A stretch of 64,000 bases of DNA. Origin: Sedimentisphaerales bacterium. GTDB taxonomy: Bacteria; Planctomycetota; Phycisphaerae; Sedimentisphaerales; Anaerobacaceae. A model generated the notes under the pieces. The model was not told where the DNA came from and did no database searches. It was given only the letters and a program-made list of their open reading frames with translations. Position 1 is the stretch's first letter. Each line of letters begins with the position of its first letter. The DNA lies in contig OY970194.1 of the NCBI GenBank assembly GCA_963708075.1, positions 4,544,001-4,608,000 of the forward strand, written 5' to 3'. The position numbers and the translations under genes are program-made. Below, one piece after another: positions 57,898 through 64,000 of this stretch.

Positions 57898-58695
57898 ATG
57901 AAAGGTACCGGCCTCACACTTGTCGAGTTGCTTGTCGTGCTTTCGATTACCGCCTTCCTGGCGGCCCTGCTGCTCCCCGCCTTCCACAAGTCGCGGGAGC
58001 AGGCGAAGGCCACGACCTGTGAGGCCCGCGTACGGCAACTGGCCTTCGCGCTGCATGCCTATGAAGGGGACAACCTGTCGTTTCCTTATGGATTTGGCGG
58101 CCCCCGCAAGGTGCCTCCACCGGGCGGCTACCCGGGCAGCGCGCTAATCGATCCCCTGGGATGGTGGTGGTTCAACTATATCGGCGCAGTCCACTACAGG
58201 ACGGCCAGGGATAAGGACGCGCTGCGGTGTCCATCCAAACGACTCGAGGATGCAGCGCTGCAGCGGGACATCCTCTGCGGCAACTACGGGGTGAACCGCG
58301 CCATCTGCAAAAGCGCCAGCAGCAGTAAGCCTGACAGCGAGTTCGAGGGGATTCCTCTATCCATAGGCGCCATCCGTCACCCGGCATTGACCTTGCTCGT
58401 CATGGATAGCGGGTACGGCCTGATCTGCTGGTGGCATGCGACAGAGGCCCCCCCGGTCACATTCGGCAGCACGATCCAGGACACCGCCTATGTTCCCGGC
58501 CTGGAGATCAACAAGCTCAAGGCACTCTGGCCCGGACAGGCTCGCGACGCCATTGACGACGGCCGGCATCTCAACAAAACGGTCAACATTGCCTTTGCAG
58601 ATTCTCACGTGGAACGAAGGAGGGCCCACGACCTGCTCGTGGAGAAAACGGACGAAGGCGGCTGGGACTACAGTCCTCTATGGTCGTCCGAGTGA
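57898..58695 (+). CDS. Prepilin-type N-terminal cleavage/methylation protein (DUF1559-like)
   Basis: G/LTLVELLVVLSITAFLAALLLP...REQAK...C; NYGVN; RHLNKTVNIAFADSHV. Confidence 0.9.
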   Translation: MKGTGLTLVELLVVLSITAFLAALLLPAFHKSREQAKATTCEARVRQLAFALHAYEGDNLSFPYGFGGPRKVPPPGGYPGSALIDPLGWWWFNYIGAVHYRTARDKDALRCPSKRLEDAALQRDILCGNYGVNRAICKSASSSKPDSEFEGIPLSIGAIRHPALTLLVMDSGYGLICWWHATEAPPVTFGSTIQDTAYVPGLEINKLKALWPGQARDAIDDGRHLNKTVNIAFADSHVERRRAHDLLVEKTDEGGWDYSPLWSSE

Positions 58696-60377
58696 TTCTG
58701 CGATTCAGGGAAGAGACGTTGGATATCGAGCTCCACCTCCTGCCGGGTCGGATACTCGAATCTGTACGTGTCCATCAATTGCCATTGCTCTTCGCCCGGC
58801 ATCAACCGGGACGATTCCATCCTTTGGGGTAATCCACTGTCAGGATCGAGGAAGGCTTTCAGCCTCTTCTGCATCACGAGGCCATTGGAGGCCTTGCTGT
58901 CCCAGGTGTATTCATGGGCCGCCTCGCCCTGCCCAATGCCTTCGGCAGCATCAAGCGCCAGAGGCTGCAACCTTCCATCCCTGGGAGTGTCGCCCAGCGC
59001 TCGTCCCAGAGTAGCATTGATGGCCTTCATTATGCTCGTGTGTTCATCCTGCGTCAGCAGGGCTCGCTCGGGTGTCCCCCGGCCCGAGAGACGGACTATT
59101 ATCTCGCGGCTTGTGAAATCACAGAGCGTGTCACCCCGCGCGTCTCTCAGCGCCACTAGTCCTGAGCCACGCGCCATCAACAACTCTTCCACCAGTGTCC
59201 CATCGGGCCCATACCGCGTCAGATGAAGGTTTTCGATGCCCATGATGGTGTCGGAGAGTTGTTGCACTCTGACAGCGGATGCGGGCTGGATATTGACGAA
59301 CAGGGCAATGGCCAGGGGAATCATCGCCGCGGCCAACAGCCCGGCTTTCAGGACCGGCCTGAATTGCGGGCTCCCCAGCCTTCGGCCCAGCGCCTCGCGG
59401 ACCCCGGCGATCGGCAGAAGCCGCGTCGTGGCCGGCTCCGGCTCGCGATGGGCCACTTCCACGTGGATCGGATACGCGCTGTAGAGGCTCTCCTCCACCT
59501 CTGGGCCGCCCTTTACGGCCTCGCTGCCGGTCGTATAGACGGTGGAGACGCCGGAATCGACCCGCTCGGCCACGCCGTAGATTGTGCGATGCAGCACCTG
59601 CATCCGTTCGATGCATTCGGGGCAGGCCTGAAGATGGGAAGGCATGGCCTCGTCGCCGTCACAGACGTGTTCATGGTTGCCGTCGGTCCGGCCGTACGGC
59701 ACCACCCACTCGAATAGATCGGCCGTCGAGATCCCGCTGCAAAGGCCGACGCCCGGGATCGTGTCTCCGGGTTGCCGGCCGGCCAGGATCTTCTCGCGAC
59801 ACCGGTGGACCCGCCTGCGGCACCGTGGGCAGGCACACATGTGGTCCAGTATTTTCGCGTCGATGCCGTCAAAGGAGGCACAGGCAAAGGCCCAGGTCTT
59901 CGATCTCGCCCGCCGGCAGATCTGCGGGTCGCCGCCGGAGACTGCCGCATACAGTCGGCTCAGCCGCGCCAATTGCTCGGGCCGAAGCTCCAGCTCGCGG
60001 ATCACCTCCAGGTCCCCGGTGCACCGCCGGCAATGATCCACATGAACGGTAATGGGCGTGGGAATCCGGATCTCTAACGAAGGCACTAGCAGCGCGGGAA
60101 GGAAGGATTTGGCCTTTGCGCACGTGATATCCTCGCCGAGATGAGCGAAGTGAAGGCTTAACGCCCCGACGACATCCGTGCCGCCCTCAGGCGTGCGATC
60201 CTGGGCCTCGGACTCAGCAATGGCAGCCTCCAATTGCCGAATCTGCGTCCGACAGTGGGCACACTGCCGGATGTGGTCGGCCACGGCTCGCGGAATATCC
60301 GCATCGAGGCCACATAGATAATCGTAATAATGTGGCTCGGCGTCCGTGCAAAACATGCTTTGGCCAAAGGTGACCAT
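58668..60377 (-). CDS. Anti-sigma factor with four zf-HC2 (ZAS)-like motifs, one TM and an extracytoplasmic domain
   Basis: HIRQCAHC, HVDHCRRC, HMCACPRC, HLQACPEC; TM AGLLAAAMIPLAIALFVNI; directly downstream of an ECF sigma. Confidence 0.8.
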   Translation of the reverse strand: MVTFGQSMFCTDAEPHYYDYLCGLDADIPRAVADHIRQCAHCRTQIRQLEAAIAESEAQDRTPEGGTDVVGALSLHFAHLGEDITCAKAKSFLPALLVPSLEIRIPTPITVHVDHCRRCTGDLEVIRELELRPEQLARLSRLYAAVSGGDPQICRRARSKTWAFACASFDGIDAKILDHMCACPRCRRRVHRCREKILAGRQPGDTIPGVGLCSGISTADLFEWVVPYGRTDGNHEHVCDGDEAMPSHLQACPECIERMQVLHRTIYGVAERVDSGVSTVYTTGSEAVKGGPEVEESLYSAYPIHVEVAHREPEPATTRLLPIAGVREALGRRLGSPQFRPVLKAGLLAAAMIPLAIALFVNIQPASAVRVQQLSDTIMGIENLHLTRYGPDGTLVEELLMARGSGLVALRDARGDTLCDFTSREIIVRLSGRGTPERALLTQDEHTSIMKAINATLGRALGDTPRDGRLQPLALDAAEGIGQGEAAHEYTWDSKASNGLVMQKRLKAFLDPDSGLPQRMESSRLMPGEEQWQLMDTYRFEYPTRQEVELDIQRLFPESQNHSDDHRGL

Positions 60378-60387
60378 TTACACTCCC

Positions 60388-60966
60388 TCACTCAACCGCC
60401 AATTTCCTCCTGAGCTCTCTCAGGCCCGACGTCAGATAGCGGCTGACGCTTCGCCTGTCGATGCCGATCTCAGCCGCGATCTCCGCAATACTATAATTGT
60501 CCCGATACCGCAGAGTCATGACTTGCGCTTCCCTTCGTCGTAACTTTCCGATCAAGCACGCGAATACGGAACTCTTCTCTTCCGTTTCCTCTGATATGGC
60601 GTCTTGTGAGGGGTCATTGTAGATAACAATCTGGCTTCTTTCCGCATATTTTTTCAAATGGCGATGTTCCTGTTCCTGCTCTCGCACCACATCGACGGCG
60701 TCACGGAGGATCGTCCGATATAGGTACCCTCTGATGTTCTGCACATCGGCCGGCACGGGTCGATCGACAAGCGTCAGGAACAGTCCCTGGAACAGGTCCT
60801 CCCGGCGTGACGCGTCACGGACGCGCAGGCGGATGAGGTTACGGATGAAACTGCCGTGCTCGGCGAAGATCTTGACCGCCGCTGCCACGGCCTCCCCCTG
60901 GTGTTCGGTGCTTATGCCATACTCTCTCACAGGTGCCCACTCCAACTCCCTTCCACGCTCTGACAA
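60388..60966 (-). CDS. ECF (sigma-70 family) RNA polymerase sigma factor
   Basis: REDLFQGLFL, GYLYRTILRDAVD (region 2); LRYRDNYSIAEIAAEIGIDRRSVSRYL (region 4). Confidence 0.88.
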   Translation of the reverse strand: MSERGRELEWAPVREYGISTEHQGEAVAAAVKIFAEHGSFIRNLIRLRVRDASRREDLFQGLFLTLVDRPVPADVQNIRGYLYRTILRDAVDVVREQEQEHRHLKKYAERSQIVIYNDPSQDAISEETEEKSSVFACLIGKLRRREAQVMTLRYRDNYSIAEIAAEIGIDRRSVSRYLTSGLRELRRKLAVE

Positions 60967-61046: not shown

Positions 61047-61317
61047 TCGAATTCGAGGCCGGTGCTGCCTTAAACTGGGCAAAATACACAGTTTACATCA
61101 GGCAACCAGTCCACGCGAAATCCTGCGCCACGACGTTGATGGCACGCCCTGGGATCGACACAAAGGAATTGTCGGTTCTTTTTGAGAATTGCATCCACAT
61201 TTTGTGTCTGCCGGTCGCTTGATCGTGTAATTGAACGCAGCGAGGGAGTATGTGCGACGCAGCGGAAAGCCAGGCCGGCGTGCTTGGAGCGATTCAGCCT
61301 CCCTGGTTGGCAACCGG

Positions 61318-61737
61318 ATGGCGTTCAGTGTGCTCGATGACAAGTCGAAAAGGCCGGATGACGGCATGCTTGCGGAAGTGCTCGGGGACTGTAAAGGGCT
61401 CTGGGACACGATTCTCGCGCATCTCGCCCAGGAGTATCCGGGCGTGCAGAACGAGTGGAGCTTCGCGGGCACCAAGTACGGCTGGAGCCTGCGCCCAAAG
61501 CACAAGAAACGCACGATCCTGTACCTGACGCCCCACGAGGGCTTCTTCACGGCCGGTTTCGCTCTCGGCGAACGGGCCGTCGCCGCCGCTGAAGAGAGCG
61601 CCCTGCCCACCCCTATTCTCGACGCGATCCGCAACGCCCCGAAATACGCCGAAGGCCGGGGAGTGCGGATCGAAGTCAAGCGCCCCGCCGACCTCGAAGC
61701 CATCAAGACCCTGGTCAAGATCAAGATGGCCCACTGA
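61318..61737 (+). CDS. DUF3788-like protein
   Basis: EWSFAGTKYGWSLR...KRTILYLTP, APKYAEGRGVRIEV, LVKIKMAH. Confidence 0.8.
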   Translation: MAFSVLDDKSKRPDDGMLAEVLGDCKGLWDTILAHLAQEYPGVQNEWSFAGTKYGWSLRPKHKKRTILYLTPHEGFFTAGFALGERAVAAAEESALPTPILDAIRNAPKYAEGRGVRIEVKRPADLEAIKTLVKIKMAH

Positions 61738-61813
61738 CCCTTCACCACGGCCTTCAAGCCAGCGAAGACCGCCTCCTGCGATGGCCGGACCCCTTAAAGC
61801 CGCTCTACTGCCG

Positions 61814-62429
61814 TCACACGAGCTTTCGCAATCTCCAACCGGCGGCAGCCAAGCCAAGTATGCCCAAAATGACTCCCCCCTGCAACGGCACAGCCGAAAC
61901 GTGAAACGAGTCAGTGAGGCTCGGGGGATCGGTCAAACCCGTGTTCATGCGAACATCGAAACCTACCATTGTCAGAGATGCCTCAGCCAAAAAGGGCAAC
62001 TCCAGCCACGCGGATTCACCGGCTGCGATTGACACCCAGTCATCATCATCAGGTGTCACAGCATTCGTAACCAGGCGAACTTCCCATGTGCTTTGATTGT
62101 CATTTGCAAGGAAGGCACCGAAGCGATCATAAGTCCCAGTCCCGAAACTACCTGTCGTTCCAATTCGCATCCAGCTCAAATCGCCGCTGAGAACCGCCCA
62201 CAAAACCGACCTCGCCTTGCATTGCCGCTGGATATTCGGTGGCCGCATACACGGGGCTTTGGTATTCCCATCCAGTACCATTGAAGACGCCCATCAACAG
62301 CCCGGAACTGCCGTCGGCAGGGAGCTGAAGAAAATCCAACGCTGTTGCATAGTCGAGGGTATACATCCCGGCAGACGCTGACCCGGCAAGCAGACAAATC
62401 ATCAAGACTGACAGTAAGACCCGTTTCAT
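61814..62429 (-). CDS. PEP-CTERM-type (VPLP-like) surface protein; frameshift near 62185
   Basis: Signal peptide MKRVLLSV...ASA; C-terminal AVPLQGGVILGILGLAAAGWRLRKLV. Confidence 0.75.
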
Positions 62430-62478: not shown

Positions 62479-63111
62479 TCACACGAACTTCCGCCACTGC
62501 AGACCCGTCACGCCCAAGCCAAGCATGCCGAGCAGGACAGCCGCCGGCACAGGAACCACGCTCACCTGCACCATGTCCAGTGTCGGCCCGTAGGAGCCCA
62601 ACATCGTTGACATGAACTGCAGGGTCGTCGCATCAGCGTCAGCGGTGAATGTCCATTCGCAAGGCGTCCATCCCATATTCGTAACGGAGTAACCGGTCGT
62701 AACGAAACTGAACGACATGCTCTGCGTGGTATTCCCTATTGCAGAGACATCCATCGTCTTCGTCGCAAGCCCGCCACCCGGATTACCCGCCATATAGAAT
62801 TCGACGAGGTAGGTGGCTCCCGAGATGGTGCTGATAACCTGTTCTACGCCCCCGGGACCCGGGTTGCCGTTCAGGTCCAGAGTGCGCTGGCCGTCGGCAG
62901 TCTGCCAGTATCCGCAAATGTAGTCTACGGCTTTAGTTCCGCCGATGACCGTCCAGTCATCAATGTCCGAGCTATCAGGGCCAAGTGTGTGGATATGCCC
63001 GGGCACCATGCTGACACCTTGCTCAAAGCTGCCGTTCAGCACCAGATCTGCCCGCACCGGCACCGCGATAAACACACACAGAACCGCAATTGACGTGAAC
63101 CTATTCATCAT
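62479..63111 (-). CDS. Choice-of-anchor C / DUF642-like protein with VPVPAA-CTERM sorting signal
   Basis: LVLNGSFEQG, WQTADGQRTLDLNG, FYMAGNP, YGPTLDMV; VPVPAAVLLGMLGLGVTGLQWRKFV. Confidence 0.88.
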   Translation of the reverse strand: MMNRFTSIAVLCVFIAVPVRADLVLNGSFEQGVSMVPGHIHTLGPDSSDIDDWTVIGGTKAVDYICGYWQTADGQRTLDLNGNPGPGGVEQVISTISGATYLVEFYMAGNPGGGLATKTMDVSAIGNTTQSMSFSFVTTGYSVTNMGWTPCEWTFTADADATTLQFMSTMLGSYGPTLDMVQVSVVPVPAAVLLGMLGLGVTGLQWRKFV

Positions 63112-63206
63112 TCATCCCTCTGTTTAGATCGAGAATCCGTCTCTTCAGCAGTAAAGACCTTCCGCTCGATGATCGCTCCCATCCGCGACGGGAGAGATCA
63201 TCTGAT

Positions 63207-63800
63207 TCATGACATGCCGGGAGGTCCGCGCGGGGCGAGGACAGTAGGTGTGCATTGCGATCTTCGCCAAAGGGAGATGATGATCTCCCGGCGGTATTGT
63301 GGTATGGGGTCCTCGGCTGCGCAGTCCGGCTGAACGAGACAGCAGGCCGTCGCATAGCAGAGGCAATCGGGCGAAATGGCGTGGCTGTGTCCAATCTGGA
63401 ATGGCCCGCCGTCGTGGTACCACTGCGGGATGTGACTGAAGGAGAGTCTCTTCACGACGGGAACGGACCGGCACACACCCAGGCCGAGCAAGGCATACAG
63501 GCACAGGCCGAAACTGTCCTGCCCATCCGACTGGATCCGCGCAGACGGCATCTCACCGCCCGGTCCCATACCGCCATGCAGATCAGGCAAGGATTTGACA
63601 GGCAGCGAACCGAGATCCGTAATGCTCAGGCAATCCAAGGGATTCGACAGACCCGTGTCTTGCTGCGTGGTCACGGCACAGGCGTGCGGCTGCCAAGGCT
63701 CGGCATCCGGCGGGGACACCGGCCGCATGTCGGCGCGAACGATCACACCGAGGGTCAGCACCCCGACGACTGCGACGAGAATCTCACTCCGTTGGATCAC
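63207..63800 (-). CDS. Exported single-TM protein ending in an RGPP motif (candidate arrest/leader protein)
   Basis: GGAG RBS and GTG start; signal peptide ...VRA-DM; TM SFGLCLYALLGLGVC; His/Cys-rich tail; ends VLAPRGPPGMS. Confidence 0.7.
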   Translation of the reverse strand: MIQRSEILVAVVGVLTLGVIVRADMRPVSPPDAEPWQPHACAVTTQQDTGLSNPLDCLSITDLGSLPVKSLPDLHGGMGPGGEMPSARIQSDGQDSFGLCLYALLGLGVCRSVPVVKRLSFSHIPQWYHDGGPFQIGHSHAISPDCLCYATACCLVQPDCAAEDPIPQYRREIIISLWRRSQCTPTVLAPRGPPGMS

Positions 63801-63831
63801 CACAGTCACTCCATCCTGGAAACCAGCTTTG

Positions 63832-63860
63832 ACTACACCAGAAATAGTTCCCCGTGTCAA
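63832..63860 (-). promoter_or_regulatory. Sigma-70-type promoter for the RGPP/PEP-CTERM cassette
   Basis: TTGACA-17 bp-TGTAGT. Confidence 0.6.
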
Positions 63861-63955
63861 GCAGAATCCGAGAAGAATCCGGAGATTCGGTTCCCGATTC
63901 TCCTTTACACCGATGCGGTCTGCAGATCCTTGATCCCTCCGTGTCGCCTCTGGTT

Positions 63956-64000
63956 CGGATCAAAGTCAAGCGCCCTGCCGACCTCGAAGCCATCAAGACC
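63956..64000 (+). repeat. Direct-repeat copy of the 3' part of the DUF3788 gene (61666-61710), truncated by the window edge
   Basis: 43/45 nt identical. Confidence 0.9.

Follow-up and report, generated by a model that had tools for sequence, protein, structure and literature searches.

RGPP-ending proteins as probable translation-arrest leaders of exosortase-sorted cargo genes in Phycisphaerae

A 64,000-nucleotide (nt) stretch from a Sedimentisphaerales bacterium (assembly GCA_963708075.1, contig OY970194.1, positions 4,544,001 to 4,608,000; hereafter the window) carries close to its end, on the minus strand, a gene for a protein of 198 amino acids that begins with a signal-peptide-like sequence and ends in APRGPP three codons before the stop. 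Two genes for surface proteins of the PEP-CTERM type follow on the same strand. This arrangement raises the question whether the protein is a leader whose translation arrest sets the expression of the genes behind it and, if so, to what the arrest would respond. The original prediction, made from the letters of the window, took it for a monitoring leader that links secretion or exosortase capacity, or a metal, to surface-protein expression. Our comparative analysis indicates that the Phycisphaerae family to which the protein belongs probably consists of translation-arrest leaders of the RAPP/RGPP type, placed before genes for exosortase-sorted (PEP-CTERM-type) surface proteins, and that the copy in the window may be regulated differently or be decaying.

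RAPP and RGPP give the most robust arrest, which is resistant to EF-P; small exported proteins carry them close to the C-terminus, and the genes behind these proteins have many different functions (PMC12992588). RGPP, one of the tetrapeptides that proteomes avoid most, stalls without much upstream sequence in the contexts tested (PMC12992588); for Planctomycetota a frequency bias of 0.15 is given (PMC12992588, supplementary file 1). In SecM and in an RQH leader, a stem-loop that hides the next Shine-Dalgarno (SD) sequence is opened by the stalled ribosome (PMC10987492).

The leader family and its genomic setting

A homologue search of a protein collection yielded 203 proteins at E<=0.01 among 326 candidates, nearly all of them 190-205 amino acids long and matched over their full length. 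In 119 of the best 120 of these 203, R[G/A/S]PP was found 1-11 residues before the C-terminus (99 RGPP, 19 RAPP and one RSPP), and the remaining protein has QAPP. The original prediction had staked itself on conservation of the terminal motif, and this was borne out by the RGPP or RAPP of 118 of the 120 and the one RSPP. After the motif, a tail of three residues follows in 69 of the 119 proteins, and one of three codons in 52 of the 80 unique loci defined below; the sequence of this tail is variable. In an alignment of 112 homologues, A24, A104, W128, H130, P134, P194 and P195 are invariant, and R192 is retained in at least 90% of the sequences, as are D25, M26, Y129, G132, G133, Q136, G138, H139, C155 and Q158. 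The hydrophobic segment and the Arg of RGPP are 91-94 residues apart in all 114 proteins compared (91-92 in 110), and the length of the periplasmic part ranges from 64 to 126 residues.

The family has a narrow range. A phylum sample of 400 other genomes contained no member, and an order sample of 150 genomes had the family in 9, all of them within the GTDB family of the window (9 of 43 there); the closest match in the order sample (G530) is the same locus as one already collected (L020). The family is nevertheless represented by 42 genome loci, in records labelled Phycisphaerae, Sedimentisphaerales or Planctomycetota, and by 277 metagenome relatives. A six-frame count of RGPP and RAPP in the genome of the window was too noisy to show depletion. 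Elsewhere in this genome (C1:1006694-1006918, plus strand) we noted a 74-amino-acid open reading frame (ORF) with a hydrophobic N-terminus that ends in RAPPV.

To describe the surroundings of the leader genes, 122 loci and the two copies of this genome were collected; the leader end was found in 104 and the downstream start in 89, and 80 unique loci remained once duplicates and one mis-called start (L037) had been removed. The downstream ORF is complete in 73 of the 80 (176-275 amino acids) and cut by contig ends in the other seven. All 73 complete genes encode signal-peptide proteins with a VPVP...LLGxLGLG...KLRK sorting tail: the pattern VPxP...LLGxLGLG...K.RK was matched by 72 of them, and the 73rd, which is that of the window, matches by eye. 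The downstream PEP-CTERM synteny proposed in the original prediction was thus present in every complete case. Leader and cargo have signal peptides of one kind, ending A-D-[LMF], and are separated by 51-198 nt (median 118; 95 nt in the window). The domains of the cargo are heterogeneous (choice-of-anchor C, choice-of-anchor R, Npun_F0296), and most cargo proteins have none, so the leader is linked to the sorting tail and not to the fold of the cargo.

Upstream, an Exosortase_EpsH gene (Pfam) was found on the same strand in 22 of the 42 genome loci, often preceded by a DUF3485/EpsI gene. When a hidden Markov model built from 21 of these exosortases was used, 54 of the 61 assessable unique loci proved to have an upstream exosortase gene, 49 of them within 700 nt; the other seven are satellite copies, a minority. 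This is the setting of the PEP-CTERM/exosortase system (PF07589, PF09721, TIGR02602), with exosortase, EpsI-like and polysaccharide genes upstream and cargo downstream, and the cargo has the Pro-rich motif, Gly-rich helix and basic cluster known from that system. The genome of the window holds two leader copies, of which the paralogue at 2.03 Mb stands behind glycosyltransferase genes, an EpsI-like gene and an exosortase gene and is followed by at least six cargo genes. The exosortase beside it passes only the general TIGR02602 cut-off, and no named subtype fits. The exosortases next to these leaders (L045:10931-11932, minus strand, and 21 relatives) have a mutual identity of 54-65% and reach the cut-off of the general exosortase model but of no named Xrt subtype. 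At these loci the EpsI-like gene stands before, and not after, the exosortase gene.

Codon choice and pairing of the arrest site

Pro194 of the motif is encoded by CCT in 76 of the 80 loci, compared to 199 of 1261 (16%) of the other Pro codons of the same ORFs (Fisher 4e-51). For the Arg of the motif five codons are used, and for the Gly/Ala/Ser position nine. With CCN as the next codon, CCU yields CCUCC, which is complementary to the SD sequence. The CCT bias probably ties the codons of the motif to pairing with the ribosome-binding site (RBS) of the cargo gene; the need for one tRNA-Pro species at the stall may also lie behind it.

In the minimum-energy folds of many loci, one helix closes the whole intergenic region. 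Its 5' strand consists of the Pro-Pro and tail codons, its 3' strand of the cargo SD and the bases just before it, and two hairpins are enclosed. For 30 loci we counted a structure of four helices, named by hand, on their alignment. In this structure 88.2% of the cells were paired, compared to 35-46% with the partners slid, and changes on both sides were seen in 15 pairs (4.8+-1.8 in shuffles, of which 0 of 500 reached 15). The CCUCC:SD helix was paired in 80.6% of the cells. The second helix, formed by the tail codons with the bases just 5' of the cargo SD, has compensatory changes in six of nine pairs; variants recognised by eye are ACAUGUCA/UGACAUGU, AACGUCA/UGACGUU, ACAUGUCU/AGACAUGU and ACAUAUCA/UGAUAUGU. 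The third helix, which is homologous to a strong hairpin of the window (HP1, 63168-63202), was paired in 90.3% of the cells with compensatory changes in four of ten pairs.

Pairing was also compared across all 80 loci. At least 6 of the 19 bases of the arrest site pair with the start region of the next gene in 56 of the 80 minimum-energy folds. The duplex between the predicted footprint and the start region has a mean of -10.5 kcal/mol, compared to -7.9 for synonymous recodings and -7.5 for an upstream coding control. In addition, the leader end pairs better with its own start region (mean -15.5) than with those of other loci (-12.05), and 2000 permutations never went below -13.44. A gain in SD accessibility of more than 0.15 was computed for 16 of the 80 loci with a stalled ribosome in place and for two with a mock ribosome.

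These observations suggest how the leader would work. Following the P-site/A-site geometry of the RAPP/RGPP stall in the structures of ApdA and ApdP (PMC10951233), the ribosome would stop with Pro194 (63224-63222 in the window) in the P site and Pro195 in the A site, and its footprint would run from about 63236 to 63209, over the Pro-Pro codons and the three tail codons up to the first base of the stop. Residues 166-191 would then fill the exit tunnel, where they may contribute to the arrest, and residues 112-165 would be placed just beyond it. HP1 begins 7 nt past the footprint and would remain folded during the stall. In the family the covered stretch forms the 5' side of the closing helix; its occupation by the stalled ribosome would therefore free the RBS of the cargo. 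The stall would thus license translation of the cargo, for a time set by the fate of the exported and membrane part of the leader.

Several points weigh against an arrest leader. The regulated genes are cargo and not machinery, so the usual feedback logic is not transferable. About 80 residues separate the hydrophobic segment from the stall site, so that any insertion or pulling force should be exhausted by the time the ribosome stops. Some 55 conserved residues are beyond the reach of the tunnel, which suggests a finished protein with a role of its own; for these residues AlphaFold2 gave no fold (mean predicted local distance difference test score, pLDDT, 58). As for the RNA, RNAalifold predicted no consensus pairs on the 30-locus MAFFT alignment, which is why the four helices were named by hand and then counted, and the structure thus derives from the same sequences on which it was counted. 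Because the loci are kin, the P-values exaggerate the significance. Over the whole family, the computed gain in ensemble SD accessibility is small (0.47 free, 0.52 stalled and 0.47 with a mock ribosome). In the window copy the switch helix was not seen: none of the 19 bases of its arrest site pairs with the start region of its cargo gene in the minimum-energy fold, and its duplex with that region (-8.3 kcal/mol) is weaker than the mean of -12.9 with the start regions of other loci, 67 of 79 of which pair better. Its footprint duplex is no better than synonymous recodings (-7.8 and -7.45), and its SD accessibility is 0.29 free and stalled alike.

The copy in the window

The mechanical ORF 63207..63860 (minus strand) is a real gene, for which the gene caller gives a 198-amino-acid form starting with GTG at 63803 (P0001; Table 1). 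Its product has 99% identity to its database entry and 70% to the paralogue of the genome; it is full-length and retains all conserved residues, and the gene keeps RGPP, the CCT CCC codons and HP1. The original prediction had read a signal peptide ending VRA-DM, with VRA-DL in the next gene, and the terminal APRGPP at 63219-63230; all of these were found exactly as described. By eye, the N-terminus consists of a basic n-region (MVIQRSE), a hydrophobic core of 15 residues and VRA followed by DM. A variable stretch of about 70 residues comes next, and then the hydrophobic segment FGLCLYALLGLGVC, which is likely a stop-transfer helix. The 85-residue tail (residues 114-198) is indeed rich in His and Cys, as had been noticed, with four His and six Cys. 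AlphaFold2 predicted helices only at 4-23, 97-107 and 169-184 (mean pLDDT 58 for the whole protein). The last of these, with a pLDDT of about 80, is the only confidently predicted helix of the tail, and no folded domain was predicted for residues 112-165 (pLDDT below 50).

Searches of the leader against Pfam and NCBIfam gave no family at E<=1, nor did a search of 62900-64000 against Rfam. The resemblance of the hydrophobic-KR stretch to a CTERM sorting signal, proposed from the letters, did not hold up. The leader was rejected as a PEP-CTERM protein: PF07589 did not match at E<=1, a profile comparison (hhalign) with 51 cargo tails gave a probability of 0.9%, there is no VPxP or PEP motif, and the hydrophobic segment is internal, with 87 residues after it. 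Assignment to CruR/DUF2946 (PF11162) was rejected for want of a Pfam match and of a CXXC in the consensus, and assignment to SecM (PF06558) for want of a Pfam match, its protein-atlas score of 0.83 being below the threshold and a lead only. The antisense ORF 63255-63998 (plus strand), which matches no family, was taken as a shadow of the leader gene.

HP1 was found exactly where the original prediction had placed a strong hairpin, and it is conserved with compensatory changes in relatives. As a terminator or RBS occluder it was ruled out, since no T-run follows it, 48 nt separate it from the SD, and its place as a side arm of the intergenic junction is conserved. The suggestion to look for an RBS-occluding structure succeeded in part: in most loci of the family the Pro-Pro and tail codons pair with the next SD, and no such pairing was seen in the window copy. 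As the helix between arrest site and RBS is not detectable there, the stall in this copy may have a weak effect or act through another pairing. The bases before the SD have diverged from those of the similar locus L087. The best predicted partner of the cargo start region is instead formed by the codons for EIIISLWRRS: at -25.3 kcal/mol their duplex is lower in energy than any other among 203 overlapping windows (mean -13.4, standard deviation 3.55), and the pairing recurs in a fold with 60 nt of upstream context. These codons encode the tail helix and lie 33-62 nt upstream of the stall site. The alternative pairing is suggestive only, and it would be opened only by queued or passing ribosomes.

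The next gene had been read as a choice-of-anchor C gene, and TIGR04362 agrees with this (9.8e-44). Against the PEP-CTERM model PF07589 its product scores E 0.0061 (17.0 bits, under the cut-off of 20.7 bits), and its tail fits the consensus of the 51 cargo tails. The second gene has the expected sorting-type tail, but in this assembly a frameshift at a TT/AA dinucleotide near 62192 breaks it in two. In contigs from two other samples of freshwater sediment (X1 and X3) there is one base fewer at 62192, and removal of that base joins the frames, by eye, into a protein of about 205 amino acids with a sorting tail. The frameshift may therefore be strain-specific or an assembly error. The three genes form a module of 2.29 kb with imperfect direct repeats on either side, both derived from the 3' end of a DUF3788 gene (61231-61737, plus strand); this suggests that the module was inserted or copied here. 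The nearest exosortase gene is 2.6 Mb away, and all three of the genome lie 2.6-2.9 Mb off.

No RNA sequencing run was found to contain this part of the genome. The promoter that the original prediction placed before the leader was not recovered. A scan of 62900-64000 found no sigma-70-like site and no -10 match to the TTGACA hexamer at 63855-63860, which together with about 110 nt around it is common to the upstream region of the paralogue. Just upstream of this hexamer stands a terminator-like stem with a T-rich tail (63867-63883, minus strand), partly common to the same region of the paralogue. Further away in the window, the translations point, on visual inspection, to an ECF-type sigma factor gene (60388-60966) and a long Cys-rich putative anti-sigma gene (58668-60377), both on the minus strand, and next to this pair a prepilin-type DUF1559-like gene (57898-58695, plus strand).

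Table 1. Positions of features in the window
Feature	Position	Strand	Basis or remark
Leader gene	63207..63803	-	198 amino acids and stop; member of an unnamed RGPP-ending family; ORF list and homologue search
Signal-peptide-like N-terminus, residues 1-24, VRA end then DM	63732..63803	-	Translation; predicted cleavage
Hydrophobic segment F98-C111 (FGLCLYALLGLGVC), then R112 and K118 R119	63471..63512	-	Conserved block SxSLCLYALLGLGLC
Conserved segment, residues 112-165 (WYHDGGPFQIGHSHA...CCxVQP)	63309..63470	-	Alignment of 112 homologues
Residues 166-191 (PQYRREIIISLWRRSQCTPTVLAP)	63231..63308	-	Conserved block SLWRKSQFTPxVLAS
Codons for EIIISLWRRS, best predicted partner of the cargo start region	63257..63286	-	Duplex of -25.3 kcal/mol
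RGPP codons CGC GGA CCT CCC	63219..63230	-	R192 63230-63228; Pro194 CCT 63224-63222; Pro195 63221-63219; APRGPP context
Tail codons GMS and TGA stop (63209-63207)	63207..63218	-	Read from sequence; with the RGPP codons, the 3' half of the predicted footprint of the stalled ribosome
Hairpin HP1 (GAUGAUC-U-CUCCCGUC / GAUGGGAG-C-GAUCAUC), 35 nt	63168..63202	-	Minimum-energy folds; side arm of the intergenic junction
Start region of cargo gene 1: SD-like GAGGGA 63115-63120, ATG 63109-63111, ATG 63106-63108	63106..63120	-	Sequence and ORF list
Cargo gene 1: signal peptide (VRA-DL), choice-of-anchor C domain, VVPVPAAVLLGMLGLGVTGLQWRKFV tail	62479..63111	-	TIGR04362 9.8e-44; DUF642 1.2e-19
Cargo gene 2: same kind of tail, two ORFs (62148-62429, 61814-62281)	61814..62429	-	Frameshift near 62192
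Direct repeats	about 61665-61740 and 63950-64000 (the latter extending some 30 nt beyond the window)		L043:1-31 and 2291-2321; 84% over 31 nt, longer on visual inspection
TTGACA hexamer, possible -35 of the leader promoter	63855..63860	-	Read from sequence; putative promoter function

Rival readings and known arrest leaders

One proposal for what the arrest responds to, which we regard as quite unlikely, takes the leader for a decoy cargo and a gauge of free exosortase capacity. The short Gly-rich helix of the leader would halt Sec translocation only upon capture by free exosortase; the nascent chain would then be slack, the stall at RGPP would persist and translation of the cargo would stay on. 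With exosortase saturated or absent, translocation would continue and pull the unstructured tail, the stall would be released, the RBS helix would re-form and cargo synthesis would stop. If true, this would be a substrate-side feedback through ribosome arrest, the mirror image of SecM. The leader could also be an ordinary accessory membrane protein of the exosortase system, with RGPP as a structural or binding motif or as a brief poly-Pro pause, and with plain translational coupling opened by any passing ribosome. Such a role would account for the roughly 55 strongly conserved residues (112-165) at fixed spacing beyond the reach of the tunnel, for the exosortase gene beside the leader gene in 54 of 61 loci and for the small computed gain in SD accessibility on stalling; also, at 198 amino acids the leader is longer than most tested arrest leaders (108-140; PMC7897499). 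It is nevertheless unlikely, because RGPP is avoided elsewhere yet nearly invariant here, at 1-11 residues from the end and with a variable tail after it, because the usual three-codon tail sets the stop at the edge of the footprint of the stalled ribosome, and because the CCT bias couples the codons of the motif to RBS pairing. A very unlikely reading is that of a metal- or redox-sensing leader of the CruR type, in which the His/Cys-rich segment would bind metal or form disulfides, release the stall and switch the operon off. Nascent CruR (DUF2946) senses copper through a CXXC and thereby relieves a RAPP arrest (PMC9426467). The leader has four His and six Cys in residues 114-198, in a segment that ends about 34 residues before Pro195 and would be freshly out of the tunnel, and the nearest named protein-atlas clusters are SecM (0.83) and DUF2946 (0.81), both under the threshold of 0.9 and leads only. 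Among these residues, though, only H130 is invariant, H139 and C155 reach at least 90%, and C147, C149, C154, C161 and H141 vary, so a CruR-like metal site is weakly supported. Moreover, there is no CXXC, no Pfam match to DUF2946 and no predicted fold, the neighbours are sorting and polysaccharide genes and not metal genes, and the segment would be on the cytoplasmic side.

Two further readings concern where the stalled ribosome sits and what has become of the window copy. The stall might tether the mRNA to the membrane, with signal peptide and hydrophobic segment anchoring the ribosome at the translocon or exosortase and the cargo being translated on the spot, a mechanism that is likened to eukaryotic XBP1u. 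By halting translocation, the hydrophobic segment would protect the stall from pulling by Sec, its spacing to the stall site is fixed, and leader and cargo signal peptides are of the same kind with an A-D-[LMF] end. A helix that masks the RBS is, however, a simpler role for the stall, and we found no bacterial description of such tethering in the literature consulted; it is scarcely probable. For the window copy only, there is a limited but real chance that it is a decaying satellite duplicate with an intact leader ORF and lost control of the cargo. The distance to all exosortase genes, the DUF3788-derived repeats around the module, the frameshift in the second cargo gene and the loss of pairing between arrest site and RBS would all fit decay, but the leader ORF is full-length with every conserved residue, HP1 is retained, the frameshift is absent from the contigs of the two other samples, the start region has an alternative pairing with 63257-63286, and satellite copies recur in other genomes (7 of 61 loci).

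Among known systems, the leader family is closest in design to small exported proteins that arrest at their own end. By its sequences it has the features of the RAPP/RGPP arrest-leader class, namely the motif, an export signal and a close downstream gene on the same strand, and it would thus belong there. An SD-masking structure that a stalled ribosome would overlap is predicted for the family and was not seen in the window copy. ApdA, ApdP and the RQH upstream ORFs, which precede secA/secDF (PMC7897499, PMC10987492, PMC10951233), resemble the leader in their export signal, in the conserved R-A/G-P-P close to the stop and in the short distance to the next gene; they also have an SD-masking mRNA structure overlapped by the stalled ribosome, as is predicted for the leader family. 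Their targets are Sec or YidC components, in contrast to the exosortase cargo of the leader family. ApdA and ApdP are also shorter (128 and 140 amino acids), and only the leader adds another hydrophobic segment and some 55 more conserved residues; outside the motif there is no sequence similarity, and stalling of the leader is predicted. The class of small exported proteins ending in RAPP or RGPP, including seven tested ones of Streptomyces lividans, is shared with the leader in that its members are below 300 amino acids, have the motif near the C-terminus and a localisation signal, and precede a non-Sec gene on the same strand (PMC12992588). The available text of that paper, its RAPP top-30 and the searchable supplements do not name PEP-CTERM or exosortase targets, and its RGPP lists may well contain these ORFs.

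CruR/DUF2946 (PMC9426467) is likewise an exported His/Cys leader ending in RAPP whose arrest keeps downstream genes on. It senses periplasmic copper through CXXC and acts through Rho termination, whereas the leader lacks CXXC, DUF2946 and metal genes, and its RNA evidence points to masking of the RBS. With SecM-secA (PMC10987492) the leader shares a signal peptide and a C-terminal motif of the arrest type (R-A-G-P in SecM); the SecM stem-loop that hides the SD and is opened by the stalled ribosome has a predicted counterpart in the leader family. SecM, however, monitors the machinery that it induces, whereas the leader precedes substrates. Since the leader's targets are cargo, with the exosortase gene upstream or elsewhere, it is not a monitoring substrate in the strict sense of SecM, MifM and VemP. 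Of the monitoring leader originally proposed, the mRNA design of an arrest leader therefore stands for the family, while strict monitoring does not, as the regulated genes are cargo and not machinery.

Among the papers searched we found none that connects arrest peptides with exosortase or PEP-CTERM genes. Experiments have so far linked arrest leaders to Sec/YidC components and, more recently, to copper and other genes. In this family the choice of codon within the arrest motif (CCU CCN) would double as an anti-Shine-Dalgarno sequence. With one motif, one RNA helix that has natural compensatory variants, and a leader with a cargo-type signal peptide, the family offers a compact and testable handle on how these bacteria may match PEP-CTERM cargo to exosortase capacity.

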